Positions 7,070 through 59,477 of a stretch of 64,000 nt of DNA are shown here, piece after piece (position 1 is the first letter of the stretch; every line of letters begins with the position of its first letter). The translations under genes were made by a program, and so were the position numbers. Location: the NCBI GenBank assembly GCA_903822075.1, contig CAIJNK010000021.1, forward strand, positions 13,112-77,111, in the 5' to 3' direction. The DNA is from an uncultured bacterium (GTDB taxonomy: Bacteria; Patescibacteriota; Minisyncoccia; Phycocordibacterales; GWA1-40-21). Under the pieces are notes generated by a model that had not been told where the DNA came from, ran no database searches, and was given only the letters and a program-made list of their open reading frames with translations.

Positions 7070-7070
7070 A

Positions 7071-38056: not shown

Positions 38057-38445
38057 AAATCAAGAAGATTCCGCGTTGGGCAAATATTGTGTTTTTCAAA
38101 GGACCGAAAGGTTTTGCTTTGGGTGACACGGTCTATTTGTCCGACCACTATCACAACCAGTTCATAGCTAGCAAGCCTTCACTTGAAACGGAGGCCCTGA
38201 TTGCTCACGAGTCAGAACATTTGGAAAGGCTCCGGAAGTTTGGGCGGTTCAGTCTCGTCAAATACTTTCTGAGTCGAAACTTCCGATTACAGGAGGAAAT
38301 TGCCGCTACCAAAGCAGAGATGGCTGTACTCAAAAAAGGCGGGCAAGTTTTTGATTATGTTGGACGAGCCAGTAGCTGGTCTTCAATCAACTATCTCTTC
38401 ATGGTCAGCTATGAAGAGGCGTATCGGATTCTTGTCGGCCTCTAG
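38053..38445 (+). CDS. Hypothetical protein with an HExxH motif (HESEH), possible small metallopeptidase-like protein.
   Basis: ATGA start/stop overlap with the upstream gene. AHESEHLERL. Confidence 0.35.
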   Translation: MKIKKIPRWANIVFFKGPKGFALGDTVYLSDHYHNQFIASKPSLETEALIAHESEHLERLRKFGRFSLVKYFLSRNFRLQEEIAATKAEMAVLKKGGQVFDYVGRASSWSSINYLFMVSYEEAYRILVGL

Positions 38446-39195: not shown

Positions 39196-39201
39196 CCAAT
39201 T

Positions 39202-41214
39202 TTATTCAATAATTCTCTCCACAACCCCCTGCACGATGCCCTGTATTGTGTCTCCTTCGTTCATAATGATATCTTTGTGATCTGAATTAAACGAACGTGG
39301 CTTAAGAGTAATTCCTTCTTTTGTCCTTAAATATTCCTTAATTGTCACATTCCCATCAACTAGAGCGACAACTCTATCACCATCATGTGCTGTCTCCTTT
39401 TTCCAGCACAAGACTAGGTCACCTTCTTTTATTCCAGCTTTATTCATTGAATCGCCTCTTGCTCTTACAATAAAATAATTCAAATCCCTCCTAATTATTT
39501 TCTTTGGTACCAAAATCTCTTCCTCAATATCCTCTTGCACATCAGTCGGCGAACCACACTGAATTGAGCCCAGTAATGGCACACGAATCATAACCCCAGT
39601 ATATGGTGATATTATTTTTTGTCTTTTACTTATAACTGATTTTGTATCCCGCTGCAAGTTACTTTTAAAATATTTTCTAAGTTTTTCATCTACAACATAA
39701 ATATATGTACCTCTTATTCCCCTAGTCAATAAAGTCTTATAAATATTAATAATATATCTTTTTAATTCTTCTGGGTCAGTTATACCCCGCCAACCATTCG
39801 CGTCCATATAATTATCAGCATTGATAACTAACTTATTTTCTTTTTCATTGTAGGAAAGTTCCGGTCCTATAATCACGCCTACATAGTTTAAGTCGTAACC
39901 TTGAACAGTATGAATACAACCCACTTCATTGACTGCATTTTTTGAATTAACCCAGTCCTGATTTGTCTCATTCCAGGTCATTTTTAGACCATCAATTTCT
40001 ATATCATGGATATTAGGATTTCTCCTGCTTCTCCATTCCCATGCATAACCCGCTACCATTCTGCATAATCCAAACTCTATATCTTTTTTCTTGATATCGG
40101 AAACCATTTTATGAATGTCATCATATAAATTCAAATCATAACCAGAAAATATAGTATTTTTTATCTCCTTTAGGTCAAACAAATTATCAACAAAGGAAAT
40201 GTACTCTTCGCCAGCAATAACCCTTTGTTGGTTGACTAAATCATATCGTATAGCATTTAAATCATTAAATTTTTTGAAATTTATGTCTGCCGGTCTGACA
40301 CTTTGATTTTTATCATAAAAAAATATCTGGTGCTTTGATGATTTTAATATCCAATCTAATTCAGTCCCTTCATTACCTAATGCGAATTTTCTATTTGTCT
40401 TATCGAATGACTGATAGTTAGTAATATTCCGCCTTTGTTTTAGACGGTGAGCTTCATCTACTATTAAAATATCATACCTTTTCTTAGTCACGTCATTTGG
40501 GCCAATCACCATTGAGGACTTCAAGTCCTTAACCTTTGAGAGCACTCGACGTATTGTTCGTCGTAACGAAGTCATAGGTACCACTAAACCCACCTCAAGA
40601 TTTTTAGTCTCATCTTTCTCTTTTAAAAATTTGACCAAATACACAGCAAGGATAGTTTTGCCTGTCCCAGGTTTTCCATTTATGATATAAGACCCTTCTT
40701 TATCTTTTAGTATATTCTGAAATATATCATCAGCTACAACCATTTGATCTTCCGTTAAGGATTTATAAGGTGAATATTTAAAAAGATCACTGTTTCTTAT
40801 CTGTACAAGATCTTTTTTTACCAACTCCTTCTTTTGCAAATCTTTCCAAATAATTTCAAATTTAGCTTTATACTTTTCCTTATCGTAATAATTATGATTC
40901 CTAAGACCGTCATTACCATTTTGTAAAACAAAAGATCCTTCAGCTGACATATACTGGATTAACCAAGATTCAATATCTAGCGTCGCAGATTTATTATATT
41001 CTTCATCTGTAATTACATGAATATTTTTTAGCCCTTTTCTGTCTGGATTATCCAAATGCTGTTTACTTCTGCTTATAAGGCTCGTGGTCTCACCAATATA
41101 GACCTCCCTGCCGTTTTCAAGCACGTAAACAACTGGCCAATTTTTACCAAATTCATACTGTTTAATTTTTTCAAAATCTACTCTATCAAATTTAAATGTT
41201 TTGATATCAGCCAT
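39202..41214 (-). CDS. GIY-YIG nuclease + DUF2075/Schlafen-like P-loop ATPase fused to a C-terminal LexA/UmuD-like S24 autopeptidase domain.
   Basis: VYVLENGREVYIGET..R..E (GIY-YIG). Walker A GKPGTGKT. YKTLLTRGIRGTYIYVVD (DUF2075 C-terminal signature). C-terminus VPLLGSIQCGSP..RGDSMNKAGIKEGD..VTIKEY aligns to the LexA/UmuD catalytic domain with a Cys-Gly cleavage site, Ser and Lys. Confidence 0.6.
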   Translation of the reverse strand: MADIKTFKFDRVDFEKIKQYEFGKNWPVVYVLENGREVYIGETTSLISRSKQHLDNPDRKGLKNIHVITDEEYNKSATLDIESWLIQYMSAEGSFVLQNGNDGLRNHNYYDKEKYKAKFEIIWKDLQKKELVKKDLVQIRNSDLFKYSPYKSLTEDQMVVADDIFQNILKDKEGSYIINGKPGTGKTILAVYLVKFLKEKDETKNLEVGLVVPMTSLRRTIRRVLSKVKDLKSSMVIGPNDVTKKRYDILIVDEAHRLKQRRNITNYQSFDKTNRKFALGNEGTELDWILKSSKHQIFFYDKNQSVRPADINFKKFNDLNAIRYDLVNQQRVIAGEEYISFVDNLFDLKEIKNTIFSGYDLNLYDDIHKMVSDIKKKDIEFGLCRMVAGYAWEWRSRRNPNIHDIEIDGLKMTWNETNQDWVNSKNAVNEVGCIHTVQGYDLNYVGVIIGPELSYNEKENKLVINADNYMDANGWRGITDPEELKRYIINIYKTLLTRGIRGTYIYVVDEKLRKYFKSNLQRDTKSVISKRQKIISPYTGVMIRVPLLGSIQCGSPTDVQEDIEEEILVPKKIIRRDLNYFIVRARGDSMNKAGIKEGDLVLCWKKETAHDGDRVVALVDGNVTIKEYLRTKEGITLKPRSFNSDHKDIIMNEGDTIQGIVQGVVERIIE

Positions 41215-41217
41215 TTT

Positions 41218-41565
41218 TTAAAGTTTATTATATTTCGTATGCTTTCCCTTAGCCTTTTCCACAGAATATTTTTCTTCATTTTTCTTCATTTTTTTCTCAA
41301 AAGATTTAATAACATCAATTTTCAAATCGTGACTCATTAATAATATCCAGTACAAAGTATCTGCAAGCTCCTCGCCGATTTCATCCTTATGTTCAATAAC
41401 ATATTTATCCATTTCTTCCTTATTCTTCCACTGAAAATGCTCCATCACCTCCCCAGCTTCCAAGACAAGGGAAATAGCTAAGTCTTTGGGATTATGAAAC
41501 TGCTGCCAATCGCGAGCGTCTCGAAAAGCCACAATTCTTTTGGTCAATTCTGCCAAAGTTTTCAT
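41218..41565 (-). CDS. MazG-like all-alpha NTP pyrophosphohydrolase domain protein.
   Basis: EAGEVMEHFQWK .. EELADTLYWILL MazG motifs. Start taken at MKTLAEL (41565). The ORF-track GTG start (41589) reads through the promoter box. Confidence 0.6.
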   Translation of the reverse strand: MKTLAELTKRIVAFRDARDWQQFHNPKDLAISLVLEAGEVMEHFQWKNKEEMDKYVIEHKDEIGEELADTLYWILLMSHDLKIDVIKSFEKKMKKNEEKYSVEKAKGKHTKYNKL

Positions 41566-41572
41566 AGAATAA

Positions 41573-41581
41573 ATGGTAGCA
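41573..41581 (-). promoter_or_regulatory. -10-like box TGCTACCAT (TGTGCTA-prefixed) 7 nt upstream of the MazG-like ATG.
   Basis: Minus-strand reading TTTTGTGCTACCATTTATTCTATG. Confidence 0.3.
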
Positions 41582-41644
41582 CAAAACACCCCTCAAAACC
41601 ACCGTTATTTGAGCCGTCTGAGCGAGTTGCGACTTATGTGCGGA

Positions 41645-41691
41645 GAATAAAAATAGGCGGAAGGTGGATTTTGAAATCCATACCTTCCGCC
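41645..41691 (-). terminator. Intrinsic terminator (minus strand): 10-bp stem GGCGGAAGGT/ACCTTCCGCC followed by a T-run. Marks the island / GC-block boundary.
   Basis: Perfect inverted repeat with an inner GGATTT/AAATCC stem. Minus strand continues TATTTTTATT. Confidence 0.6.
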
Positions 41692-41735
41692 CGCCTGATT
41701 ACCCCGCTCGCTCGATCACTACCCATCGTTCCTGA

Positions 41736-42518
41736 TTATTCCTTGTACAGGCGATGGTTGTAATATTCCAACCCGAAACGCCCGTCCTTACCCTTGGTGG
41801 GATCACCTTTGTAGGCCGTGACGCCGCAGTTGATGGGCTTGTCATGCTCATCAACTCCGATAAAATCATCCGCGTCCCACCGCTCCAGATTGGCCCTGAT
41901 GCCCAAGATGTTCAGATGATGCGTAACCGCCAGAATCCGTTGCTCGGCAAAATCCCGAACTACGGTGTTCATCCACGAACGATTCCGCTCCCGGACGTCC
42001 GGCACGCTTTCACCCTGCGGATACCGATACCAGTACCGGCCTTCAAGCTGGTACAGCTTGCCTTGCTCCGGGTGAATGGCGTGGAAAACGCGCCAATCAT
42101 TGTAAAGCAAAGCCAGACCATGTTCCTGTTCCCGAATTCGTTCGTCTTCAATCACCCGAACGTGCTCGAGCCCCGGCCAACCCCGAATCAAGCCGGCCAA
42201 AGTATTCCGCGTTCGCTCGTACGGCGACACGAAGATGATGTGCGGAAGAGCATCACCATACCGGTCCCAGAGTGCAGCGCCCACTTCCCTGGCTCGCTTA
42301 GCTTCCAGATCCCGCAACGGCGTTTTGGCATCACCCACGCCAAGTGCAAACTGAGCCTGGACCGCTTTAGCCAAAGCTTGCGTCGTTTCAGATTCCGGAT
42401 TCTGTTTGAACTCCGTGAGAAAAGTCTGATAAAGCTTACTTTTGGCTTTCAAGCTTTTCAAAACATTGTAGGCCGACACATCATGTCGGACCAAAAGCAT
42501 CAATTCCGGCCACTTCAT
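41736..42518 (-). CDS. Histidine phosphatase superfamily (phosphoglycerate mutase family) protein, GC-rich.
   Basis: LLVRHDVSAYN (RHG-like) and VTHHLNILG (second His) motifs. SD AGAGGGG. Confidence 0.6.
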   Translation of the reverse strand: MKWPELMLLVRHDVSAYNVLKSLKAKSKLYQTFLTEFKQNPESETTQALAKAVQAQFALGVGDAKTPLRDLEAKRAREVGAALWDRYGDALPHIIFVSPYERTRNTLAGLIRGWPGLEHVRVIEDERIREQEHGLALLYNDWRVFHAIHPEQGKLYQLEGRYWYRYPQGESVPDVRERNRSWMNTVVRDFAEQRILAVTHHLNILGIRANLERWDADDFIGVDEHDKPINCGVTAYKGDPTKGKDGRFGLEYYNHRLYKE

Positions 42519-42675
42519 GTTACCCCTCTTTTCTTTTTTGCATTTAAGCTGACGTTAAAGGACACTTGACACCTAAAATTATTATACATAAAAATACCTC
42601 TCTGTCAATGTTAGAAGTGTACTCCAACCACCCAATGACATATTCGAGTAATCTTCTATTTCAGCATCTGGGAAA

Positions 42676-43044
42676 TCAAGCTGGAATAAATTTAAGAGAG
42701 ACAGAATTTACGCAGTGACGAACGTTTTTAGGCGTCAATCTTTCATCTAAAAATACGTGGCCCAGATGGGCGCCACAATTCGCACAAGAAATCTCCGTTC
42801 TCAAGCCGTCGGCATCCGGAGTCTTTATTATTGCCCCCGGTATCTCGTCATCAAAACTGGGCCACCCACACTGCGCATCAAACTTATCTTTGGAACGGTA
42901 AAGCGGCGTCTCACATTGTCGACAAACATATACGCCCTCTTTATAAAAATCATCGTACTCGCCGGAAAAGGCAGCTTCGGTGCCCTTGTCAATAATTACC
43001 TTTTTCTCCACTGGCGTAAGTTTTTTCAACTTGATCTTTTTCAT
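42676..43044 (-). CDS. msrB: Peptide methionine-R-sulfoxide reductase MsrB (SelR).
   Basis: CRQCETPLY .. CGWPSF .. [12 protein letters not shown] (two CxxC pairs + catalytic region). ATG chosen at MKKIKL. Confidence 0.85.
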
Positions 43045-43214
43045 ACATGTAATCATACCGCTTTAGATTTAATTTGTCATGAATATTGTAGAAATTTTTA
43101 ATAAAGCAACCGGTGTCAGACTGAGCGATATGGATGATTTAATTAAAAAAGAAGCCCGCAACCGGTAAGGGTTGCGGGCACACGACTTTGAAATAACTCC
43201 TCGTTGAAAACAGA

Positions 43215-43739
43215 TCAGAGAATGAAGTTCAGGCCGCTCTTCCGATCAGTGGACTTCATCCAGGCGTCATAAGCACCAGCGATGCAGATATCCGCCACCA
43301 TGCCGGCGATCATCCGGTCGTGCCAAGAGTCCACACCGGAAAAGCCTACGGCCAGCCCTTTACGAAAGACTCCGCCCCAATACGCGGTGTCTCCGGGAAA
43401 CAGAAGATGCGGAAGAATATCCGACCCACCGTCATTGCGTTGGTGCCAAAGCTGTAAGGCTTTGCACCGCGCAATATCACGGAACGGATACTTCCACTTC
43501 GCCACGTCACCAACGCTTACTTCCAAAAGCGTAAACGGGCGAATCGCCAGATTCGGATAAATCTTGTCAACATCGGGTTCATCACCAACATCCATCTCTG
43601 GAGCAAGAATGACCAGGTGACCATCTGATCCATCGACTTTGATTGCAGAATATTCTCCCTGGAACACGAGCGAGAGAACGGCTGATGCTGCACTATTGGC
43701 AAGTGCCTGCGTCAAAAACTTTGGTTTTTCCCATGACAT
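43215..43739 (-). CDS. Hypothetical protein (GC-rich block).
   Basis: ORF with SD GGGAG 10 nt upstream of the ATG at 43739. No recognisable motif. Confidence 0.4.
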   Translation of the reverse strand: MSWEKPKFLTQALANSAASAVLSLVFQGEYSAIKVDGSDGHLVILAPEMDVGDEPDVDKIYPNLAIRPFTLLEVSVGDVAKWKYPFRDIARCKALQLWHQRNDGGSDILPHLLFPGDTAYWGGVFRKGLAVGFSGVDSWHDRMIAGMVADICIAGAYDAWMKSTDRKSGLNFIL

Positions 43740-43945
43740 ATTACCCATCTCCCTTCAATTTGTTGGAACTTCTTGAGTTGGTCCACCAGCTCTCATTACT
43801 CATATGATAACAAATAAAAACCACTGTGTCAAACAAACCAAGGGTGGTGTATCGAATAGAAAAAGTAAGTCAGTTTACAAAATTTAAAAACATGTTACTA
43901 TCTAACCAGGTTGCACTTTAACTTTTCTAAAGATCGGAGGATTTT

Positions 43946-45082
43946 ATGTTCAGCTATCCCCTTCTGCGGGAAGTCTTTGAGCTATATGCCGAGGCCGACC
44001 TGGACAATGTTTTGGTGTTGGCCGTTCAGCATTTACTGAATGATCAGCTCTGTGCTTTTGATCTTTTGCTGAAAGCGGGACTCCGGCCGGAGAACTGCCT
44101 CATCGTCGGCAAGAACTATTCGGCAAACGTTGACGTGGTCAAAGCCTTGCGTGAAAAGGGTTGCCTGGTGGCGCCCTTTAGCACGGACTTTGATCCGGAA
44201 CGAGGCTTTGATGGCTGGTTCGAGGAAAAGCTGACAGCTTTTCTCAGGCAGGAACTGGGCCAACGAAACTTGGGTAAATATCGCAAGATAATTATCCTTG
44301 ATGACGGAGGCTTCATGCATCTTGCCATAAACGAACTTTGCGGACATCTGCCAAATATTGTAGGGATCGAGCAAACGTCATCCGGATATCACAAAATCCG
44401 ACAGGCGAATATTCGATTTCCGACACTATCAGTGGCCAGGATATACCACAAACAAGTTTGCGAATCTCCGCTTATTGCCCAAAACGGCTATGAGCGGATT
44501 GCCGAGCATTTGCAGTCACGGAGTAAGTCCACCCCGAACATCTTGGTGTTTGGTTTGGGAGCGATTGGCCGGCAGATAGCCGGACGATTATTCCTAACAC
44601 ACGGACATCAGGGAATGGCCACCGACTGTGACCTTGGTGAGAGAGTACTGGTCCATGGAGTATCACAAATGCTGATAAGCCGCGGATTGATTATTCCTCT
44701 CTCCGAGGCAATGGGCCGGTTGGGACAGTTTGATGTCATAATTGGTACGACCGGTTCAACCGTTCTGACCGAGTGTGATGTCAATCGGCTTCACCCGCGA
44801 GTTTCCTTGATCAGTCTGTCTTCGTCGGATCGTGAATTTCCGGCAACTTTCTTCCGGAAGAAGACAAGTGAAATTCATGATAATTGCTGGAAGGACACAA
44901 GATGTCTGGTCAATGGCGGCTTCCCCATCACTTTTGATGGAACGGCGCAAGCGATGCCTCCAAATCAGATCGAGCTCACGGTCGCTATCATGTTTACCTG
45001 TCTCTTGAACGAGCTCGGCGAGGTGAAATATCCGCTCTCGATAATCGTTAACCGATTGTTTATGATGTGGAAGCCAGATTGA
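43946..45082 (+). CDS. S-adenosyl-L-homocysteine hydrolase (AhcY/SAHH)-like NAD-binding protein.
   Basis: IIILDDGG (SAHH xLDDGGD-like), GIEQTSSGYHKI (GISEETTTGV-like), Rossmann VFGLGAIGRQIA, VIIGTTGS (TTTGN-like). SD GGAGG. Confidence 0.45.
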   Translation: MFSYPLLREVFELYAEADLDNVLVLAVQHLLNDQLCAFDLLLKAGLRPENCLIVGKNYSANVDVVKALREKGCLVAPFSTDFDPERGFDGWFEEKLTAFLRQELGQRNLGKYRKIIILDDGGFMHLAINELCGHLPNIVGIEQTSSGYHKIRQANIRFPTLSVARIYHKQVCESPLIAQNGYERIAEHLQSRSKSTPNILVFGLGAIGRQIAGRLFLTHGHQGMATDCDLGERVLVHGVSQMLISRGLIIPLSEAMGRLGQFDVIIGTTGSTVLTECDVNRLHPRVSLISLSSSDREFPATFFRKKTSEIHDNCWKDTRCLVNGGFPITFDGTAQAMPPNQIELTVAIMFTCLLNELGEVKYPLSIIVNRLFMMWKPD

Positions 45083-45109
45083 GAAACTGGTAACATGGAT
45101 TGAACAGTT

Positions 45110-45143
45110 ACGGGTCGTCTTGCAGAAGATGACCCGTTTTTTA
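45110..45143 (+). terminator. Intrinsic terminator ACGGGTC-loop-GACCCGT followed by TTTTTT.
   Basis: 7-bp stem immediately after the stop codon at 45082. Confidence 0.6.
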
Positions 45144-45191
45144 TTGCCAAAAATATAACTTTCTAGTCACCTAATCACAGCAGACGTCTGC

Positions 45192-45220
45192 TTGACAAAA
45201 CACGTTAGATCAGCTATATT
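45192..45220 (+). promoter_or_regulatory. Sigma70-type promoter TTGACA-17 nt-TATATT.
   Basis: Consensus -35, 17-nt spacer, near-consensus -10. Followed by SD AGGA and the ATG at 45286. Confidence 0.55.
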
Positions 45221-45285
45221 CATTAACAGATTGTGAGTTTTGTTAGTGTTGATAACTGAAGAACAGTTAAAGAAAGGACGGGTGT

Positions 45286-46119
45286 ATGAGTACAGTTACA
45301 GCCAAGAGTATTGAACGTCTGGCCGTCGGCCAAGTTCTGAACAAAGGCATTGACGAGGTCAACCCCAATCTTCTCTTAGCTCTGCAGGAATTCCCTTGGG
45401 AAACCGATCATGATCCGGCTATCGATTCATTGCCGGAAGCGGAGTTGGATTTGGAACTCAACATCCGCTCCTGTCTGGGACGTATTGCCCACGCCGGAGC
45501 GTTTGTTGGCCTTCATTTCCCAATGACCGAGACCTGCTATGCTGAAGTCTTGGTGGATGCGCAAGCTCAGGCAACGCTCGCCAAGGTGCATCATGGCTCC
45601 CCGCGTGACTTGGATGATGTTAAAGAATTGCTTCAGGCGGTTCTGATATACGAGATGCCTCATGCGGTGTTGGTCCTGGACAAGGTTCAATTTGATCCGC
45701 TCTGGACCATCTCTCCGGTGGAAACCAATCACCCCAAGGTGAAAACCTACCCAATCTGGGAAGCAGTGGCCTCGGCAGTGATGGTCTCCAAGGCTTGGCT
45801 GGAGGAAGTTCCGGAAAGGAAGCTCATGCTTCTGGAGGAAGCGGAAAAACTTTGCCCCGGGACGGCGTTGGTAGTTGAGGACAAGATACAGACTCTGGTG
45901 GAGCTCGGACGAACCGAAGAGGTCATTCACCTATTGAAAGATCTTTTGGTCAAGAGACCGACGGCCAAGACGTTGTTTGATCTTTACACTCTAACCAGGG
46001 ACAAGGCGTACCAAGGAAGGCTGGACGAAGAGTACACGCGTCACATGTATTACGTGCTCCTGCAAGATAGGACGGAGCAATACGTAACCAAGTCATTAAG
46101 CGCCAAAAGCGGGAAATGA
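45286..46119 (+). CDS. Hypothetical protein (GC-rich block), 277 aa.
   Basis: Clean ORF with SD. No recognisable motif. Confidence 0.5.
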   Translation: MSTVTAKSIERLAVGQVLNKGIDEVNPNLLLALQEFPWETDHDPAIDSLPEAELDLELNIRSCLGRIAHAGAFVGLHFPMTETCYAEVLVDAQAQATLAKVHHGSPRDLDDVKELLQAVLIYEMPHAVLVLDKVQFDPLWTISPVETNHPKVKTYPIWEAVASAVMVSKAWLEEVPERKLMLLEEAEKLCPGTALVVEDKIQTLVELGRTEEVIHLLKDLLVKRPTAKTLFDLYTLTRDKAYQGRLDEEYTRHMYYVLLQDRTEQYVTKSLSAKSGK

Positions 46120-46123
46120 ACAT

Positions 46124-46166
46124 GGACGGGTTGGCACAAGCAAGTGCCCACCTGTCCTTTTTTTTA
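46124..46166 (+). terminator. Intrinsic terminator (imperfect long stem GGACgGGTtGGCAC/GTGCCcACCtGTCC followed by T8).
   Basis: Hairpin plus TTTTTTTT after the stop at 46119. A mirror terminator for the convergent gene follows. Confidence 0.55.
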
Positions 46167-46202
46167 TAAAAAAACCACAGGTAGCATTACGCCCACCTGT
46201 GG
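46166..46202 (-). terminator. Intrinsic terminator for the convergent minus-strand gene (stem CCACAGGT/ACCTGTGG, T-run on the minus strand).
   Basis: 8-bp perfect stem. Minus strand continues TTTTTTTATAAAAAAAA. Confidence 0.5.
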
Positions 46203-46230
46203 TTCAAGATGTAAAAAGACACATCATACG

Positions 46231-46581
46231 TCAGATTTCTCCTTTCGGCTCTCTTGGTTTTCGGGAAGCGCAATCAATGTCCGCTCCGCAGTTGGCGCAT
46301 TGCTCGTAGCCGTCTACGACAACGATACCGCCTTCGAACTCCAACTGTCCAAGAGTTTTCCCACACTTTCCTCCACAGTGCCAGGTGTCATCCGCCCGCT
46401 GTTCGGCTGTCCGAAAAACCGGTAATGGCCGCCTGACTAACTCCGTCGCTTTCGCCAGACGTTTGAGCAACTTCCTTAGCTGTTTTCTGTCTGGCAGATT
46501 AGCATTGGGCATAATCTGTAGCTTTTCACTTTTATCACCTCCTTTTAATGTTACAAAGACCTCAGGACCTGCGTTCAGCAT
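46231..46581 (-). CDS. Hypothetical Cys-rich (zinc-ribbon-like) protein.
   Basis: WHCGGKCG ... CANCGADIDC. Start set at the ATG at 46581, which is preceded by a TATTAT/TATAAA box 6-9 nt upstream. The ORF-track start is a TTG. Confidence 0.4.
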   Translation of the reverse strand: MLNAGPEVFVTLKGGDKSEKLQIMPNANLPDRKQLRKLLKRLAKATELVRRPLPVFRTAEQRADDTWHCGGKCGKTLGQLEFEGGIVVVDGYEQCANCGADIDCASRKPREPKGEI

Positions 46582-46647
46582 ACCAAATTTATAATATAAA
46601 AACCACCGCACAGGAACGGTGGTTTGGTTCGCGAGAAACAATACAGA

Positions 46648-46950
46648 TCAAGCCGACTTTTCTTTTCTCTTTCCTTTCTTCTTGGGAAAGTCCCAAGGGC
46701 GAATCTTCCCTTGACCTTCACGGTGCCAGACTTTGAAAGCCGCCGACATTTCCGCCTTGCTCTTAATCAAGCGACTCACAAAAGCATAATCCGTGCAACC
46801 CCACAAACGATGGGACTTGCCGTCTGAGCACCAGACGCCGTCAAGAATTTGCTCTTCGGAAAGAAACTGCTGATTTCTGGCCAAGATCTCATTTGTCCTG
46901 GCATCCAATGGTTCGATGTACCATTTCTGCAACGCATGCTTTCTCTTCAT
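46648..46950 (-). CDS. Hypothetical protein with a basic C-terminal tail.
   Basis: ATG at 46950 with SD AGGAAG. The ORF-track start 47013 is a TTG. Confidence 0.4.
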   Translation of the reverse strand: MKRKHALQKWYIEPLDARTNEILARNQQFLSEEQILDGVWCSDGKSHRLWGCTDYAFVSRLIKSKAEMSAAFKVWHREGQGKIRPWDFPKKKGKRKEKSA

Positions 46951-47018
46951 CTTCTCTTCCTTTCCATTTTCTATTTCTACTTGGATACTAACTCTTAGCA
47001 AAGCGGGAGTCAATGAGC

Positions 47019-48080
47019 TTACTCCAGGACCACTTTAGGGATATAACCTTTTCTCTTGAGAATAATCCAACCAATAATTATAAGAATGATTATAATTATT
47101 GTAGGGTGAATTGGCGAATAGATTTTGACCAATTCCCACATACTGACCCAGCTGACGTAAACGGACCCGCTTACTGTTTCTATATTATCGCCGAACAAAG
47201 TGTCCTGCTTGTTGGCATTGGCTAGATTATTATTTTCACCGGCAATAAGATTGTCTAAAGTTTTAGCTTGAACGGAATAGTTGTCATTTTCCAGGGATAA
47301 TTTTTCTCTCTGTGTTTCAGCCTGAGAAGCCAGGAAAGATTCCTCGTTTTTCAAAGTTGCTATTACAGTGGAACTGGTTGCCGTCTCCAGCTTGGCCTGA
47401 ACCGTGACCAGGGCAGACTGAATATTTTGCAATTCGCCATTAATCTGATTAACAGTCTTAGCATGGGCAACAATCAAGCTGGCTTTCTGCTTGTTCAGAT
47501 CAGCCAGGCTCGTAGTGGCCTGATTTTGCCATTGCTCAATCCCCTGCTTTTGTCCCAAAAGGTTTGTGGAGGAAATGGTTTCTGAATATAACTTCTCATG
47601 CGTCAGCTTCTCCATCTGATCCCTGAAAGCGTCAAACTTGCTCTTGGCTACAATAAAAGTAATCCGCCCACTTTCCTCTGAGGAATACAAGCTATCAACC
47701 CGACCATCGGCCCCTTTAATGATATTATTCACATTCGTGATGGTATCCTTTACCGCTCGGGATTTTATACTGGCGGAATAACTTACCTTTTGAAACTCCC
47801 GGGTATCCGTCACTGAAGGCTGCTGGTTACCACCATAATTATAATAATCCGGCATCATCTTATTGACCACACCTGACTCGGCGCTACCAGCACTTGGCGG
47901 CAATAAATTGGAGACATTTCCTGCTCTTGCACCACTCGAATAAAAAACTTGAGTTTGGAGAAAACAAAATATTCCCCACAAAGCCAGAACAACGACAATA
48001 GCTATAATGCTCGTTATAAATTTCCAGCGCTTAATCCTGATAATTTTCCCTGGATTCACGGCTACCTCATTTTCACTCAT
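47019..48080 (-). CDS. Membrane protein with N- and C-terminal TM helices and a long coiled-coil ectodomain (DUF4349-like architecture).
   Basis: TM at ~aa 25-45 and at the C-terminus (HPTIIIIILIIIGWIIL). Heptad-rich centre. Confidence 0.5.
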   Translation of the reverse strand: MSENEVAVNPGKIIRIKRWKFITSIIAIVVVLALWGIFCFLQTQVFYSSGARAGNVSNLLPPSAGSAESGVVNKMMPDYYNYGGNQQPSVTDTREFQKVSYSASIKSRAVKDTITNVNNIIKGADGRVDSLYSSEESGRITFIVAKSKFDAFRDQMEKLTHEKLYSETISSTNLLGQKQGIEQWQNQATTSLADLNKQKASLIVAHAKTVNQINGELQNIQSALVTVQAKLETATSSTVIATLKNEESFLASQAETQREKLSLENDNYSVQAKTLDNLIAGENNNLANANKQDTLFGDNIETVSGSVYVSWVSMWELVKIYSPIHPTIIIIILIIIGWIILKRKGYIPKVVLE

Positions 48081-48166
48081 AAAATTAGATTAATTAGCTG
48101 ATAAATATTGACATATCTTAACACAAAAAAGTTTAAGAAACACCAAACAGCACCGGTCATCAGTTT

Positions 48167-49543
48167 TTACTTATGCCTGATTATCTTCCTCAGCGTCACA
48201 AAGTCTATTTTTGGCAGGCTGTCATCCGTCTTGCAAATCTCCTCGTACTTATCAAAAAGTTCCAGAAAATCCAGACTTACCAAGACTTGTCTGATAGTTT
48301 TAAAACCAAAATTGCGCTGAATGGCTTGGAGTATTTCATAACCGACAACATAAAAGAACCCCATACACTCAAAACCTTCTTGGCCGATCTTTAATAAATC
48401 CTCCATTCCTTGAGTATTCAAGAAACGGTTAAACTTATCAAACGCTTCAGGAACATCATAGTCTAAACCCTTCTCCCGATACCACTCTTCCAGACTATCC
48501 CCGGACACAGCCACCGCAAAACCTTCATCTAAAGTTCCTGCCAATATTTCTGCCTTATTACTATCGTTGACCTCATAAAGAGACTGCGCTGTTTCTCCCG
48601 TCTTTTGATTCCTCAACCAAATATGAAAAACCTCATGGGTAACACCGCCAATCACAACATTAACGGCCAGCGGATCACGGGCCAGACGAGCCAGATCGAC
48701 TTCAATTTTATTTTTATCCAAACACCGAAAGTCGGATCTTCGGTTAAGGGTAAATAAAACTTCAAAATCCTCCGCGATAAAATCAGGCAGGAGGACGGAC
48801 AGCCTTCTCTCGACTTCCCTTTTTATCTCCCCATATTTTCCGGCCAGCTCTTGGGCAATTTCCAAAATATCCTCCTTGCTCTGGCCAAGTTTTTGCTCTT
48901 TCAACAACTTTCCAATTTCCGTCTCATCAATGAACTTAAAAACCATTTTATCCAGATTAACTTCCGCTCTCTCAATATTCAAGTTGCCCTCTTTAAATTC
49001 TCTAAATTTCACCTTGAGGGAATCAAAATCGCCTATTCCAAGATCCCAGGAATCCAAACCTTCACCAAAAACTACCCGGCCATCCGCTTCAATATCTGCT
49101 CCAATTATTCCCCTGGTTGGATCGGTAATAACCCACTGACTTCCGTCATATACTCCGGCGTAAACATGGCCACCAGGACTCACTGAGGAGTCCTCGGATT
49201 CTAACCAACTCCTTTCGATAGTTTCAATATATTTTGTCGGGATTCCACTCGCTCTGGCCAAAGTGATAAAAACTAAGGCGTCATCCGTGCAACCAGTTAC
49301 ATAGTTATCAGAAATTATTTCTTCGGCGGTCCTTCTTCTAAAAACCCTATCTTTAACTTCCCGATTATTACTTTTATTTTCAAGCTTTCTGACCAGGTTA
49401 AAAATCAGCATTATTTTTTCTTCCAATGTACCTTCAAACCTGGAGGTAATTTCTCGGATATTTGGCGTAATCTGAGTTTGCGGCCCAGATTGCAAATACA
49501 AAGGCGCCTGTTCTTTTCCAACTAATTGTTCGGTGGTTCCCAT
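48167..49543 (-). CDS. Transglutaminase-like cysteine-peptidase-domain protein fused to a C-terminal HExxH (putative metallopeptidase-like) domain.
   Basis: GCTDDALVFITLARASGIPTKYI (TGase Cys motif), GGHVYAGVY (His), ITDPT (Asp). C-terminal GGVTHEVFHIWL. Confidence 0.5.
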   Translation of the reverse strand: MGTTEQLVGKEQAPLYLQSGPQTQITPNIREITSRFEGTLEEKIMLIFNLVRKLENKSNNREVKDRVFRRRTAEEIISDNYVTGCTDDALVFITLARASGIPTKYIETIERSWLESEDSSVSPGGHVYAGVYDGSQWVITDPTRGIIGADIEADGRVVFGEGLDSWDLGIGDFDSLKVKFREFKEGNLNIERAEVNLDKMVFKFIDETEIGKLLKEQKLGQSKEDILEIAQELAGKYGEIKREVERRLSVLLPDFIAEDFEVLFTLNRRSDFRCLDKNKIEVDLARLARDPLAVNVVIGGVTHEVFHIWLRNQKTGETAQSLYEVNDSNKAEILAGTLDEGFAVAVSGDSLEEWYREKGLDYDVPEAFDKFNRFLNTQGMEDLLKIGQEGFECMGFFYVVGYEILQAIQRNFGFKTIRQVLVSLDFLELFDKYEEICKTDDSLPKIDFVTLRKIIRHK

Positions 49544-49666
49544 GCGTCAAATGGTATCACAAAATCCACGGAAAAAATATGACGAAATAAAAAGGGCCGT
49601 CTGCGGGATGATAACACCCGCAGCCGGCCTGATTCAAAACTCAACTTCACTAAACCCAAAAGCCAC

Positions 49667-50713
49667 TCACCAATTCAGATCCGGATCCGTCAGATCCAGA
49701 TTAGGATCAAGCAGGCGAACGAATGGCAGTTGCTCCGCCACCGATGTTTGATTGAAGTCGCTCCGATCGAAAATCGTTTTCCCCGACAGGAACAGAATAT
49801 CCTCATCATTCATCAAGGCTAAAAGCAGAGCGGGATTTACGCCAGAGATCTTCTTCTGCACAAACTCATAGACCCTGGCCATGACACCTTCAGCGCCTTC
49901 CGCGTTCACTCGCTCATAGAGTTTATACATCTCGGGCTTAACCTGTTGAAAGATCCGCGCCTCCGGTGAATTTTCGAAACAGACCCGGCCAGCCAAGATT
50001 GATTCCCGACAAATAGCCATAATCAGCCTGTTCACCCTCTCCCGTTGATAACGGCCCAGTTGGTTGATGAGCTCGGTCACGTTCCGTGTTTCATCTTCCG
50101 GCAACAGTCGCCGCTTTACCAAGTCGTTGTAATCGGAAGTAATAAAACCGATTTTATCGGCTATCATGGTCACGCTAGCTTCGGCACTCATCTGCCTAAC
50201 ACTGTTCATTTCACCATTACCACGCGAATGATAAAGAATACCCGAAAGTGTTTGGTGGGTAGCGTTCACCCCTTTGCCCAAGCGCTCAATCCTCTGTAAA
50301 CGAATGACACCAAACACTTCGTGCCGAAACTCTTTGCCCAGACAAGAGCTCAGAAATTTTTCCCCCACGTGCCCAAACGGTACATGACCACCATCATGCC
50401 CCATAGACATGGCCCTGACCAGGTCGACATTCAAACCCAGAATGTCCGCAATCATGGTGGCAATACTAACCACTTCCATCGTGTGACTGGCCCGGTTCCG
50501 GATCAAGCCATTCTGTGGTGAAGACACCACTTGAGTCTTGAACTGCAACTGGCGGGAGGCCTTTGACGGACCGATCTTGGTGTCCGCATCTTGCCGATAC
50601 GGCTGGTGATCACTGATCACCAGATCCTCATCCTCGACGTATCGCCGCCGCGCCTCACCGTCATCGGTTCTCAGGTGGGATAAGTTCCCCAGTTCTTCCA
50701 GCTCTATTCTCAT
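49667..50713 (-). CDS. dgt: dGTP triphosphohydrolase-like HD-domain protein.
   Basis: HTMEVVSIATMIA .. GHDGGHVPFGH (HD .. H.PFGH of the Dgt family). ATG at 50713 with SD. The ORF-track start is a TTG. GC-rich. Confidence 0.65.
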   Translation of the reverse strand: MRIELEELGNLSHLRTDDGEARRRYVEDEDLVISDHQPYRQDADTKIGPSKASRQLQFKTQVVSSPQNGLIRNRASHTMEVVSIATMIADILGLNVDLVRAMSMGHDGGHVPFGHVGEKFLSSCLGKEFRHEVFGVIRLQRIERLGKGVNATHQTLSGILYHSRGNGEMNSVRQMSAEASVTMIADKIGFITSDYNDLVKRRLLPEDETRNVTELINQLGRYQRERVNRLIMAICRESILAGRVCFENSPEARIFQQVKPEMYKLYERVNAEGAEGVMARVYEFVQKKISGVNPALLLALMNDEDILFLSGKTIFDRSDFNQTSVAEQLPFVRLLDPNLDLTDPDLNW

Positions 50714-50792
50714 TCTGCTTTCCCTTTCTTTTGATTTTACAAGTTTCTTATATCTCAATCCATCCTAGCACAAACCGGTCCAAAAACCAGCC

Positions 50793-52019
50793 CTATAAAA
50801 ATAATAAATTCCGGTCCAAATCATCAGTTTGCGTACCTTTTTCCTTATGTTTCAAAGCCTGATGGGTGGAGGCCAGATAGACCAACCGTTTACCAAATTT
50901 TTCTTCCAGCGAATCTATTTGTTTATGGACCAATTCAAACTTGTCCGCCTTGGCTTTCCCGCCAAACAAATCACCCTGAACCGCGTAGTTAGAAATGAGC
51001 TCCTGCAAAGTCACGCCGGTAGTTCGGTAAAGAATCCCACGCCGGTGCATCTCAGGAAATTTATTTTCCGCCAAAGCGGTGATGATTTCGGGAGCGTTGG
51101 TGGGCGAAGAAAGCTTTACGGCGCAAATGTAATATTTGAAATCCTGCGCTTTAAGAAAAAAGGAGACTTTTTTGGGTACCAAATCATAATGTCGAGCTTT
51201 AGCACAAGCCTCCTCGATATTTTTTGATAACTGAGACAGGAGAAAAGTCGGGTTATTTGTTAGCGGATGAAAAGTGCGCGTTTTCTGAATAGAAGAGTAG
51301 ACGGTTTTTGGCACCGGATCTATCTTGAATAAATATTCGCCCCGAAGCTCCCGCCAAAGCTCTTCGTAAGGCTTGGCTAAATTATTTTTGACCCAGGCCA
51401 GATCCTTATTTATAAAATCCCCGGCCAGCCGGATATTTCTTCTTTGCAAAAATTCCGCTGTTTTGGGACCAATACCCCAAACTTTTTCCACGGGGATTTT
51501 CCGTAAAAAATCCAGGGCTGTTTCTTTTTTAATTACGGTCAGACCGTTAGGTTTCACCCATTTTGAAGCCACTTTGGCTAAAACTTTGGTTGGCGCCAAA
51601 CCGATCGAAATGGAAAGATGAAGTTCTTCATTTATTTCTTTTTTGATCCTTTCCGCTATCTGTAAATATGAGAGTTTGAGCGGCCGGTCCAAGCCGGTAA
51701 GATCGGCAAAACATTCATCGATACTATACTCCTCCACTTCGTCCGCGTATCGGCGCACGATGTCAAACATCAAGGCGGAATAACGGGAGTAGGCAGCATA
51801 ATCACCAGGTAAGATTATCACTTGTGGAAAATCTTTTTGCACTCGAAAAATGGGCATGCCACGGACAATACCAATAGCTTTGGCTTCATAGGACAAGGCA
51901 GAAACTATTCCCCGTTCCTCGCCAGTCACCACGGGCCGGCCTTTGAGCTTGGGATTTTTAGCCGTTTCCACGCCCACAAAAAAAGCATCACCGTCCATGT
52001 GTAAAATAACTTTTTCCAT
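50793..52019 (-). CDS. dinB: DNA polymerase IV (Y-family, DinB).
   Basis: ILHMDGDAFFVGVE (matches IIHVDMDCFFAAVE), palm/fingers/little-finger layout, 408 aa. Confidence 0.85.
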   Translation of the reverse strand: MEKVILHMDGDAFFVGVETAKNPKLKGRPVVTGEERGIVSALSYEAKAIGIVRGMPIFRVQKDFPQVIILPGDYAAYSRYSALMFDIVRRYADEVEEYSIDECFADLTGLDRPLKLSYLQIAERIKKEINEELHLSISIGLAPTKVLAKVASKWVKPNGLTVIKKETALDFLRKIPVEKVWGIGPKTAEFLQRRNIRLAGDFINKDLAWVKNNLAKPYEELWRELRGEYLFKIDPVPKTVYSSIQKTRTFHPLTNNPTFLLSQLSKNIEEACAKARHYDLVPKKVSFFLKAQDFKYYICAVKLSSPTNAPEIITALAENKFPEMHRRGILYRTTGVTLQELISNYAVQGDLFGGKAKADKFELVHKQIDSLEEKFGKRLVYLASTHQALKHKEKGTQTDDLDRNLLFL

Positions 52020-52105
52020 GGAACCAGTATAACACAGAGTGAACGAACGTTCACCAACCCGTTATCTCAGATAGTGCTTGATCCAAATTCTTTTAAACTA
52101 GAAAA

Positions 52106-52924
52106 TTATAAGGTGGTTTGCGCACTTATTTCATTTGTCGTGGCATCATAATTAATCCTGACACTTTTCCCTACCGACGGGGGTGTGGTCATGGGCTCTC
52201 CTACTTTTTGTTCGGCAAAATTATAAACGGCCTGCCCGTCAAGAATCTCGAGTGTCTGCGGCGCGATCCGATCACCCAAAAACACAGTGTTGGTAGCCTT
52301 ATAACCGGTACCGGTATTTATCAACAATTCCGCGTAATAAAAAGTTCCGCTGCCACCGGGACTTTCTGTCAGCCAAACGGCTTTGTCCAAAAGACCATCG
52401 CTGTTCAAATCCCCCGCTACCGGCTCGCCAAACGTTTTGTAATCGGCAAACTGAACTGATTGAGCCATGCTATCAGCCAGATTATCAACATTAAACGTGG
52501 TGCGCTCGTTCTTACATTCGGTTTTCTGCGGATCATCATAATTATCACACTGAACCGCTCGGAGGGTAAAATTCAAAGTAATGACTTTATCATTTTTTAA
52601 AAAAGCATAAGCATAGGTTGTATAGATACTGCCCGCTGCCCCCTCAGAACTGACCGTCACACAATAGGCCTGTGAATTAATTATTCTTTTCGCGCAGTTA
52701 AGTGGACCGTCAGTCACAACCACCTGGGGTGGCCAAGTCACAGCGTGGATATATTTAGTGGCAAGTACGAGTGGGTAAACAAAAGTGACATTGGTCTCCG
52801 AGATTGGGTTGGGATTTGGTGTAACCAAGCTTGACACCTTATTCTGACTGTAGATAAAATAACCCGCTGCGCTTATTATGATAAGTAAAATCAAAGAGAA
52901 AATTATCTTATGTATTTTTGTCAT
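52106..52924 (-). CDS. Secreted hypothetical protein with an FG-GAP/VCBS-like Ca-binding repeat.
   Basis: Signal peptide/TM MTKIHKIIFSLILLIIISAAG. GDLNSDGLLD motif. Confidence 0.5.
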   Translation of the reverse strand: MTKIHKIIFSLILLIIISAAGYFIYSQNKVSSLVTPNPNPISETNVTFVYPLVLATKYIHAVTWPPQVVVTDGPLNCAKRIINSQAYCVTVSSEGAAGSIYTTYAYAFLKNDKVITLNFTLRAVQCDNYDDPQKTECKNERTTFNVDNLADSMAQSVQFADYKTFGEPVAGDLNSDGLLDKAVWLTESPGGSGTFYYAELLINTGTGYKATNTVFLGDRIAPQTLEILDGQAVYNFAEQKVGEPMTTPPSVGKSVRINYDATTNEISAQTTL

Positions 52925-53078
52925 GAGTATAGTATAACATTTAAATATTAATTCCGTCTTACAAAATAATTTGACAATTACCGATTATGAGAATAACCTT
53001 AAAAACAGAAGCTAAATAGCTAAAAAGAGCTGTTGGCAAAAACGGCCGGAAACGGCAAAACAAAAAGGAGAAGACGCG

Positions 53079-53858
53079 ATGAAGAGATACGGAAATGGCT
53101 CGGCAGTGGCAATGGCAATGCAGAATTTTATCGAGTTGAGCCGAAACCCCTACCCGGGCCGCGGAATTATCACGGGCGTAAGCAGCGATTCCGCTTACCT
53201 GGTCCAGGTCTACTGGATCGAGGGTCGAAGTGATAACAGCCGCAACCGCGTCTTCAGCATTGAAGGCGGCCGGGTGTTTACGGAAGCGGCCGATCCGGCA
53301 AAAGTGAAGGATGGCAGTCTGATCTTTTACAACGCCATGGACGAATACGACGGTAACTACGTGGTGAGTAACGGCGATCAGACCGACGACGTCATGAAGA
53401 TGCTGCGGCGATCAGCGGGTATCCGTTTGCACGATGCCCTGCTCGGACGATTTCATGAGCCGGACAAACCGAACTTTACGCCGCGGATCACCGGTCTGAG
53501 TCGGATCAACCCCGGTAAAGACATGAACGAGCTTTCCATTCTCCGGAAATCCGACCTGGCTGACTGCGAGCGAGCCTACATTGTCTATAACAGGACCACG
53601 GCGGGTTTCGGCTTCTGCGTTACGACTTACGATGGAGATGATGACCCTCTGCCGTCGTTTGAAGGTGGACCGTACCCACTGCCAATTTTAGGTAGTGTGA
53701 ACGACGTGGCTGAAACCTACTGGTCCATCCTCGACAAGATGAACCGAGTTGCCATCGCGGTGAAGTTTATCAGCATCTCCACCGGCGAGTCGAAGATTCG
53801 GGTAATCAATCAGAACACCAAGAAAGTCCCGCCGAATCCGCCGACCGCCCAAGTGTAA
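53079..53858 (+). CDS. PurO-like (archaeal-type IMP cyclohydrolase family) protein, GC-rich cassette.
   Basis: YWIEGRSDNSRNR and VVSNGDQTDDV resemble PurO YRVSSRSFPNR / VVSNGSHTDTI. SD AGGAG. Own terminator. Confidence 0.45.
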   Translation: MKRYGNGSAVAMAMQNFIELSRNPYPGRGIITGVSSDSAYLVQVYWIEGRSDNSRNRVFSIEGGRVFTEAADPAKVKDGSLIFYNAMDEYDGNYVVSNGDQTDDVMKMLRRSAGIRLHDALLGRFHEPDKPNFTPRITGLSRINPGKDMNELSILRKSDLADCERAYIVYNRTTAGFGFCVTTYDGDDDPLPSFEGGPYPLPILGSVNDVAETYWSILDKMNRVAIAVKFISISTGESKIRVINQNTKKVPPNPPTAQV

Positions 53859-53879
53859 GTACGGGCAAGCGCCAAGCTG

Positions 53880-53913
53880 CCGCCAGTTTACGAGTGACTG
53901 GCGGCTTTTTTTA
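53880..53913 (+). terminator. Intrinsic terminator GCCGCCAGT-loop-ACTGGCGGC followed by TTTTTTT.
   Basis: 9-bp perfect stem immediately after the PurO-like gene. Confidence 0.65.
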
Positions 53914-53944: not shown

Positions 53945-54031
53945 GGAGACGTGTCAGAGTGGTCTAATGTGCCTCTTTGCTAAAGAGGTGGGGTTTAATC
54001 GCCCCCGCTGGTTCGAATCCAGCCGTCTCCG
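53945..54031 (+). tRNA. tRNA-Ser (anticodon GCT), long variable arm.
   Basis: Acceptor GGAGACG/CGTCTCC. Anticodon stem-loop CCTCT-TTGCTAA-AGAGG. Variable arm GTGGGGTTTAATCGCCCCCGC. T-arm TGGTTCGAATCCA. Confidence 0.8.
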
Positions 54032-54078
54032 CAGTTTTAAACCTATCCATGTTTTATTTAATATGTTAAAATTCTCTC

Positions 54079-59449: not shown

Positions 59450-59477
59450 TAATCCGAATATTTTAGCATTTATTATG

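Follow-up and report, generated by a model that had tools for sequence, protein, structure and literature searches.

GC-rich, self-contained accessory genes in a 64-kb genome segment of an uncultured Patescibacteriota bacterium: probable gene-by-gene horizontal acquisition

A stretch of 64,000 nucleotides from an uncultured member of the Patescibacteriota (positions 13,112–77,111 of the 85.9-kb contig CAIJNK010000021.1, assembly GCA_903822075.1; 'the window' below means this whole stretch) carries a scatter of genes that are richer in G and C than those around them. The question that they raise is whether they arrived from elsewhere, singly or in blocks, or are native to the genome in which they now sit. 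A preliminary description, made from the sequence by eye, had taken them to be GC-rich foreign blocks in an AT-rich genome, carrying their own promoters, Shine–Dalgarno (SD) sequences and terminators and acquired in multiple horizontal events. We favour, with a probability of roughly 0.6, the reading that self-contained accessory genes were acquired horizontally one by one, likely from other, somewhat GC-richer Patescibacteria. The window also encodes GatA, LigA, RecG, FtsH, transfer-messenger RNA (tmRNA), eight tRNAs and a type IV pilus set (PilB, PilT, PilC, PilM and pilins), and the nearest relatives of its genes are in metagenome-assembled genomes (MAGs) labelled Patescibacteria, Parcubacteria, Paceibacteria or Saccharibacteria; there is no rRNA gene in it, and by these relatives its host looks like a small-genome member of the Patescibacteria.

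At 42.5% GC overall the window is mildly AT-rich, with no strong bias of the kind first assumed, and its ordinary, host-like genes lie at about 41–43% GC. A sliding scan in 1-kb windows gave GC values of 0.32–0.525, with peaks at 41.5–42.5 kb (0.524), 44–46.5 kb (0.48–0.515), 49.5–50.5 kb (0.49) and 53–54 kb (0.525), which match the positions at which GC-rich stretches had been claimed. The GC content at third codon positions (GC3) has a per-gene median of 0.443 across the window; uniform composition is not seen, as the heterogeneity among genes is far over the binomial expectation (χ2 = 530, 68 degrees of freedom). Four genes are robust high-GC3 outliers: Bax1-I, a His-phosphatase of the His_Phos_1 superfamily, an open reading frame (ORF) of 277 aa and a PurO-like gene (individual values are given in Table 1). 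A second tier within GC3 0.54–0.57 comprises a 177-aa ORF, a gene for a protein like S-adenosylhomocysteine hydrolase (SAHH), a dgt-like gene for a dGTPase-like HD-domain protein and a P-type ATPase gene. Leaving Bax1-I and the ATPase aside, the outlier genes span 48–55% GC and GC3 values of 0.54–0.68. The blocks themselves are less tidy than had been drawn: the segment at 41.7–47.0 kb does hold GC-rich genes but is a mosaic, in which MsrB is host-like and 46.2–47.0 kb is intermediate, while the pair at 37.5–38.5 kb (an amino-acid-kinase-like ORF and an HExxH ORF) is GC-rich but forms part of a longer GC-rich stretch at 34.0–38.45 kb. Tetranucleotide usage also deviates at 44–47 kb (z = 2.6–3.4), and most strongly (z = 4.8) in the GC-poor segment at 39–41 kb (GC 0.33).

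The rise in GC3 in the GC-rich set extends to all 18 degenerate amino acids and includes G-ending and CpG codons; from host genes to the GC-rich set the share of CCG goes from 0.29 to 0.56, that of CGG from 0.17 to 0.37, that of ACG from 0.15 to 0.33 and that of CTG from 0.17 to 0.32. Translational selection as the sole cause of the high GC3 was rejected because the G-ending and CpG codons are also up. After normalization for GC, the (3,1) dinucleotide distance between the GC-rich set and the host genes was 0.134, compared with a maximum of 0.120 among 300 random ten-gene subsets of the host genes. The shift across all codons and the dinucleotide signature point to a different mutational history of the GC-rich genes. 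The core genes in the window (gatA, ligA, recG and pilB/T) are not GC3-rich.

The contrast that had been drawn between a leaderless host style and SD-bearing GC-rich genes proved to be real. The motif TGNTATAAT occurs 14 times in the window against 2.5 expected, a count reached by none of 100 shuffles, and before 20 ordinary genes a −10 box ends 4–12 nt, and mostly 6–8 nt, before the start codon. The TG extension is found in 12 of these 20 promoters, and their −35 regions match TTGACA at a mean of 2.7 of six positions, no better than chance. In the leaderless genes of Actinobacteria and Deinococcus such a −10 spacing sets the transcription start at the start codon; because the geometry is the same here, extended −10 promoters (TGnTAnAAT) without a −35 element appear to drive the ordinary genes of the window, with a start at or next to the start codon and hence no leader. 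The GC-rich genes have a mean −35 match of 5.3 of six, with exact TTGACA before five of them (the His-phosphatase, the 177-aa and 277-aa ORFs, the PurO-like gene and Bax1-I) and five of six positions before the SAHH-like gene, and their −10 boxes lie 44–79 nt 5′ of the start codons with SD-like sequences in place. Mean GC3 is 0.561 for genes with a core SD (n = 5) versus 0.423 for the leaderless-like genes (n = 20; Mann–Whitney p = 0.004).

Not every signal was as uniform as first described. The canonical SD sequences that had been ascribed to the GC-rich genes in general are present before the His-phosphatase, SAHH-like and PurO-like genes (as GAGG, GGAGG and AGGAG), but those of the 177-aa and 277-aa ORFs are weaker and the dgt-like gene lacks a clear SD, with a host-type TGTGCTAGGAT box directly 5′ of it. 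The promoter TTGACA-17-TATATT reported at 45.2 kb was recovered as such, and so were four GC-rich hairpin terminators, all of which have energies of −23 to −27 kcal/mol and are followed by U-runs; the one at 46124–46205 resolves into two convergent terminators.

Relatives of the PurO-like gene, which has the highest GC content in the window, were compared across other genomes. The protein matches PF07826 (2.4e-36) over 189 of 192 positions but falls well below the thresholds of the NCBIfam PurO models (32.7 and 23.9 bits versus cut-offs of 150 and 158), and its profile matches the PurO structures 2ntk and 1kuu in the PDB across the N-terminal half only. The family has 2161 cluster representatives (best 52% identity), and 80 metagenome loci of relatives were fetched (best 61% identity). 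Where the host is low in GC3, the PurO-like gene is the top-GC3 ORF of its ~20-kb locus in seven of 12 cases (z up to 19). In low-GC hosts it stands out as a sharp one-gene spike of 46–54% GC on a background of 30–44%; in high-GC hosts its GC matches that of the flanks. None of its neighbours in the window recurs in the 80 homologous loci. In a neighbour-joining tree the PurO-like genes nearest to that of the window come from ~10 hosts of 33–44% GC, and all of them have 46–54% GC across deep branches (50–60% amino-acid identity). The PurO-like genes of a sister clade, also in low-GC hosts, have fully equilibrated, with GC3 values of 0.17–0.36, so the protein does not itself demand a high GC content.

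The surroundings of the PurO-like ORF are conserved only as far as its own signals. In the clade that includes the window, TTGAC is found 60–125 nt upstream in 20 of 26 loci (background 9%), an SD-like site is found in 23 of 26, and in most the stop codon is followed directly by a terminator. Locus L079 and the window have CAGAAGCT..AGCTAAAAAGAGCT in common in their leaders, while the proteins are just 61% identical and the flanking genes differ. Because this layout is kept while the flanking genes differ, the unit that is conserved, and has presumably moved, would consist of promoter, leader, ORF and terminator. In six homologous loci the leader also carries a hairpin motif, CCGCGGCTNNCAGCGG (a 4–5 bp GC stem with a GGCUNNCA loop), which lies ~25–45 nt before the start codon of the PurO-like gene and occurs nowhere else in the 159 loci fetched; the window and two further loci (L081 and L082) have a degenerate hairpin at this position. 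No Rfam family matched the leader in the window or in the homologous loci, and as covariation in the motif is almost nil we do not call it a riboswitch. The tRNA-Ser(GCU) directly 3′ of the gene in the window is not a recurrent neighbour in the homologous loci.

Some relatives give an indication of function. A PurH that has only the 5-aminoimidazole-4-carboxamide ribonucleotide formyltransferase (AICARFT) domain (PF01808, ~390 aa, without the cyclohydrolase domain) adjoins the PurO-like gene in at least seven loci (L144–L148, L152 and L154, and weakly L106). This adjacency supports a role in the conversion of formyl-AICAR (FAICAR) to inosine monophosphate (IMP), i.e. as an IMP cyclohydrolase, for the PurH-adjacent part of the family. 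No AICARFT partner was found inside the 64-kb window, and the PurO-like gene, here an orphan, is still odd for a reduced genome, as had been remarked.

The 378-aa SAHH-like protein has no match in Pfam or NCBIfam, the AdoHcyase models included; a profile of its family matches SAHH chains in the PDB with E = 4e-16. Its AlphaFold2 (AF2) model (predicted local distance difference test, pLDDT, 93.3) shows the two-domain SAHH fold with an NAD-binding Rossmann domain, and the top 50 Foldseek matches in the PDB are all SAHH, with template-modelling (TM) scores of 0.6–0.72. The SAHH motifs align at H29, D119-D120-G-G, E142-Q-T-S-S-G, K169/E173 and G203xGxxG208, but the histidine of GHxD is replaced by serine (SSSDREF) and the protein is ~50 residues shorter than AhcY. 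As judged from the model, this is a complete, divergent SAHH-fold protein that is no member of the family by curated thresholds; the label 'AhcY-like' thus holds for the fold but not for family membership. The description of the two enzymes as 'metabolic fragments' does not hold, as the SAHH-like protein has the whole SAHH fold (pLDDT 93, TM ~0.7) and the PurO-like protein covers the full PF07826 domain.

A total of 204 relatives of the SAHH-like protein were detected (best 66% identity), and 70 loci (L006–L075) were recovered from one-genome-per-species data. These are mostly from Patescibacteria, and also from DPANN archaea, Chlamydiae and MAGs labelled Proteobacteria, Acidimicrobiaceae or Acidobacteriota. 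The gene has no conserved neighbours in the 70 loci, its closest relatives (66% and 56% identity) included; the relatives stand alone with their own terminators, and their upstream sequences are not conserved. Together with the PurO-like loci, the synteny comparison called for at the outset gave no shared neighbours of either gene in ~150 other loci, and the two genes are distributed over several phyla and domains. In the subclade of the window (43–52% identity) the SAHH-like gene exceeds its flanks in GC content at all 11 loci. A distant subclade (28–36% identity) has genes that are GC-poorer than their flanks, most so in GC-rich hosts, and the two subclades thus deviate from host GC in opposite directions. 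Neighbourhood clustering also picked out a few Chlamydiae-type loci with a class I methyltransferase, an SDR and an EamA-type transporter near the SAHH-like gene.

These results suggest how the GC-rich genes may have come together. Accessory genes of 48–55% GC are dispersed mainly at 34–47, 49.7–50.8 and 53.0–53.9 kb, and most would form self-contained units of a TTGACA −35 and a −10 box, a leader of 44–79 nt, an SD, an ORF and a strong intrinsic terminator. Such units would have been acquired one at a time or a few together; the donors would be genomes with a somewhat higher GC content, most probably those of other Patescibacteria, and the units' own signals would let each of them be expressed in a host with different native signals. 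Uptake may plausibly have been by natural transformation with subsequent recombination, because no integrase or att site was found and the window carries type IV pilus/competence-type genes. We infer the transfer and its direction from the composition, the (3,1) signature, the signal architecture, the absence of synteny in 70 + 80 loci and the recurrent GC spikes, and the claim of multiple horizontal acquisitions is thereby supported in part.

Several observations weigh against this reading. Scans of the region with Pfam, PHROGs and PADLOC found no integrase or transposase, the surroundings of the PurO-like gene and of the low-GC island at 38.5–41.6 kb showed no direct repeats of the att type, and there is no recurrent tRNA target. 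A search for strain-level presence or absence, with the flanking host genes as queries, returned only collinear, near-identical contigs of the same species, and among the strains sampled in them none lacks any of the units. The best non-self matches of the SAHH-like (66%) and PurO-like (61%) proteins are no closer than those of host-like genes (for a 458-aa host-like protein the best match has 51% identity over ~58% of the query), and so there is no sign in the sequences of a recent transfer from a sampled donor. The GC excess of the PurO-like gene, which persists through a deep clade, would not be maintainable by hopping among low-GC hosts; because 46–54% GC is kept across deep branches in hosts of 33–44% GC, it would have to be fed from a GC-richer reservoir of genomes or vehicles outside the sample, or be upheld in this gene specifically by selection or biased gene conversion. 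Inside the window the dgt-like gene is GC-rich yet has a host-type promoter and MsrB lies in the block with host composition, and the composition of the 'host' is itself that of 64 kb of the genome. Carriage of the GC-rich genes by phage was considered separately and found to be without support: in viral contigs the SAHH-like, 277-aa, His-phosphatase and 670-aa (low-GC island) proteins had no relatives, and PurO-like loci numbered just two, both distant.

The persistence of the GC excess is also the strength of the alternative in which the GC-rich genes are long-resident and effectively native, their GC content being a maintained trait of the clade and no mark of arrival. The candidate forces are selection acting on mRNA or synonymous sites, and GC-biased gene conversion in accessory genes that recombine often. 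In all of the ~10 hosts of the PurO-like subclade neutral amelioration should be complete, the SAHH-like subclade of the window (subclade A) shows the same persistent excess, and the lack of closer matches than for host-like genes fits as well. This alternative does not account for the equilibrated sister clade of PurO-like genes, for the G-ending/CpG codon shift with its deviant GC-normalized signature or for the lack of kept neighbours in any of the ~150 loci, and the core genes of the window do not share the rise in GC3. We consider it unlikely, but it is the main rival.

Gene-by-gene acquisition can be taken further, to a proposal that we regard as distinctly doubtful: that Patescibacteria-type genomes have in common a stock of portable single-gene units, each with a sigma-70 promoter, long leader, SD, ORF and terminator, which would move without integrases (by transformation, for instance), function in hosts with leaderless genes of their own and stay at ~50% GC whatever the host. 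The PurO-like unit would add to this a conserved hairpin in the 5′ untranslated region, CCGCGGCUNNCAGCGG, which is in no Rfam family and might regulate a purine-salvage step in cis as a new type of element. If true, such a stock would imply a hidden GC-richer reservoir or a gene-specific force that maintains GC.

The two signal styles might instead be native regulatory classes, constitutive leaderless genes on the one hand and regulated genes with a sigma-70 promoter, leader and SD on the other, and as such be silent on origin. A mixture of leaderless and leadered genes is nothing unusual in bacteria such as Actinobacteria and Deinococcus, the conserved hairpin motif in the PurO-like leader suggests regulation, and two GC-rich genes break the pattern, the P-type ATPase with a leaderless-type promoter and the dgt-like gene with its host-type box. 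Why the leadered class should also be the one that deviates in composition and dinucleotides is not explained in this way, nor is the recurrence of these genes elsewhere as GC spikes that lack conserved neighbours, and we find the explanation improbable. That the mosaic is an artefact of assembly or binning, joining DNA of different organisms, might be suspected of a metagenome-assembled contig near whose island borders several independent contigs end, but this was rejected as effectively refuted, since contigs from independent assemblies cover 37.7–39.5, 41.07–49.99 and 51.2–56.5 kb with 99.1–100% identity and full collinearity, and the junctions at 38.45, 41.6, 47, 52.9 and 53.9 kb are spanned in at least three independent assembly sets and one Logan run.

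The segment at 38.5–41.6 kb had been treated as host background but is in fact the strongest compositional outlier of the window by tetranucleotide usage; the dinucleotide test was not significant with its three genes. These encode an HNH-like protein of 234 aa, a DUF2075/Nhi/AbiO-like helicase–S24 protein of 670 aa and a MazG-like protein of 123 aa. The 670-aa protein is a Schlafen-type helicase (SLFN-g3 helicase in Pfam, 5.8e-68) fused C-terminally to a UmuD/LexA-type S24 peptidase (Peptidase_S24, 2.8e-24), and its PADLOC matches to Nhi (3.5e-16) and AbiO (3e-13) both cover the helicase core only. The fusion is unusual. From its composition and gene content, the island is a putative separate, defence-like acquisition from a lower-GC source.

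Of the remaining GC-rich genes, the dgt-like one encodes a protein with an HD domain (1.2e-11) and a PADLOC dGTPase match (1.8e-28) that scores 163 bits against the best NCBIfam dGTPase model (cut-off 393). Library scans with the 177-aa, 277-aa, 136-aa and 121-aa ORFs gave no family, defence or phage match, sequence searches of the PDB with the 177-aa ORF, the 277-aa ORF and the His-phosphatase gave chance-level matches only, and the 277-aa ORF, modelled by AF2 from its single sequence, reached a pLDDT of just 41.5, too low to be of use. Much of the compositionally atypical set is related to nucleotides: besides the SAHH-fold enzyme and the PurO-like protein it includes the HD dGTPase-like and MazG-like proteins and the His-phosphatases.

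A second His_Phos_1 gene, near the start of the window, is low in GC3. Its protein is 84% identical to an ORF in a distant MAG (locus L050, at ~11684) and this ORF adjoins the SAHH-like gene of L050, which is just 33% identical to that of the window; the match suggests a recent transfer of the low-GC gene. It opens a nucleotide-metabolism cluster that continues with an 80-aa GIY-YIG protein and deaminase-like, HD-domain and dCTP-deaminase-like proteins, the first two genes having GC3 values of 0.23–0.28. Elsewhere in the window, a 943-aa surface-type protein has InlB B-repeat, Ig-like and CarboxypepD_reg domains; the first 2 kb of its gene are a tetranucleotide outlier (z = 3.9), probably owing to internal repeats. 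A tRNA-Ile has the anticodon UAU, an uncommon way to read AUA in bacteria, and the tag peptide predicted for the tmRNA is unusually long (ANSIVSRVKSVVSPYFAANSFAFAYVA).

Table 1. Features of the window, with positions counted from its first nucleotide; the penultimate row lists sites in homologous loci with their own numbering.
Feature	Position	Strand	GC	GC3	Remarks
943-aa surface-type protein	1–2887	+			
Low-GC His_Phos_1 gene	4578–5126	+		0.23	
Nucleotide-metabolism cluster	4578–7866				
GC-rich stretch	34028–38445	both			five ORFs
P-type ATPase	34028–35902	−			GC-rich; leaderless-type promoter
YgjP-like	35942–36493	−			
Bax1-I	36730–37404	−		0.64	TTGACA promoter
Amino-acid-kinase-like ORF	37577–38056	+			
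HExxH ORF	38053–38445	+			
Low-GC island	38491–41589	−	0.33–0.35	0.29–0.37	three ORFs
Terminator, His-phosphatase	41645–41691	−			−24.7 kcal/mol, then U-run
His-phosphatase (His_Phos_1 superfamily), 260 aa	41736–42518	−	0.54	0.62	GAGG SD
Promoter, His-phosphatase	42581–42608	−			TTGACA-16-TATAAT, 12/12 consensus; 62 nt upstream of start codon
MsrB (SelR)	42676–43056	−	0.44	0.44	host-like, inside supposed block
Terminator, 177-aa ORF	43154–43179	−			10-bp stem, 8 GC pairs
177-aa ORF	43215–43748	−	0.52	0.54	
Promoter, 177-aa ORF	43804–43832	−			TTGACA-17-TATCAT with TG extension
Promoter, SAHH-like gene	43874–43901	+			TTTACA-16-TACTAT with TG extension; divergent from 177-aa promoter
SAHH-like gene, 378 aa	43946–45082	+	0.50	0.55	GGAGG SD
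Terminator, SAHH-like gene	45110–45137	+			
Promoter, 277-aa ORF	45192–45220	+			TTGACA-17-TATATT
277-aa ORF	45286–46119	+	0.52	0.60	
Terminator, 277-aa ORF	46124–46157	+			convergent with the next
Terminator, 136-aa ORF	46205–46172	−			
136-aa ORF	46231–46641	−	0.46–0.49		intermediate GC; GC range shared with 121-aa ORF
121-aa ORF	46648–47013	−	0.46–0.49		intermediate GC
dgt-like HD-domain gene	49667–50758	−	0.50	0.57	
Promoter, PurO-like gene	52971–52999	+			TTGACA-17-TAACCT; 79-nt leader
PurO-like leader hairpin	53045–53056	+			GCCG-GAAA-CGGC; position of CCGCGGCTNNCAGCGG in homologous loci
SD, PurO-like gene	53066–53070	+			AGGAG
PurO-like gene (PF07826), 259 aa	53079–53858	+	0.55	0.68	top GC in window
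Terminator, PurO-like gene	53879–53905	+			
tRNA-Ser(GCU)	53945–54032	+			directly 3′ of PurO-like gene
tRNA-Ile	59477–59550	−			anticodon UAU
CCGCGGCTNNCAGCGG sites in homologous loci	L078 382–397; L079 2039–2054; L080 2289–2304; L098 243–258; L104 79–94; L107 9931–9946				
tmRNA	62205–62631	+			

If gene-by-gene acquisition is correct, the window offers a sequence-level picture of ultra-small, host-dependent bacteria adding genes of nucleotide metabolism and stress response as ready-to-express single-gene units. It would also flag two uncharacterised enzyme families, the divergent SAHH-fold proteins and the orphan PurO-like proteins, 'wandering' across Patescibacteria, DPANN and other small-genome lineages, and would suggest that a deviation in GC can be the property of a gene clade and no date stamp of its transfer.

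The units resemble, and differ from, several known systems. In the amelioration model of Lawrence and Ochman, atypical composition is said to mark acquired genes against the resident genome. The genes of the window are like classical compositional islands in being atypical in GC, GC3, codon use and dinucleotide signature; they differ from them in having no mobility genes, att sites or recurrent tRNA target, and from simple amelioration in that the GC excess of the PurO-like and SAHH-like genes persists through deep clades. Integron cassettes are promoterless, bear attC and lie next to an integrase. The likeness to them is that single-ORF, putatively mobile units, often with accessory functions, stand side by side; the units of the window, unlike cassettes, come with a promoter, leader, SD and terminator of their own, and neither an integrase nor any attC-like repeat was found with them. 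The ordinary genes are like the leaderless genes of Actinobacteria and Deinococcus-Thermus in that the −10 box ends ~6–8 nt before the start codon without an SD, but the predicted −10 here is of the extended TGn type without a −35.

The two enzymes stand in a similar relation to their namesakes. The SAHH-like protein shares with AhcY the fold and most of the substrate and NAD motifs, and departs from it in the GHxD substitution, in length and in falling below the curated thresholds. The PurO-like protein is like the archaeal IMP cyclohydrolase PurO in its full-length match to PF07826 and in the AICARFT-only PurH genes that adjoin its relatives, and unlike it in scoring below the curated thresholds and in the absence of an AICARFT partner from the window.

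Horizontal gene transfer and genomic islands in Patescibacteria have already been published, and the window is a further example of them. They make up as much as 13% of genome length and stem mostly from within the phylum, defence genes are found on the islands and competence pili have been proposed as the route of uptake (Gios et al., 2025, mSystems, PMC12455944). The window agrees with those islands in lineage type, in atypical composition and in genes that would have been transferred individually; what sets it apart from them is that its units are mostly single genes with full expression signals, set against a host whose own genes appear to be leaderless (PMC12455944).

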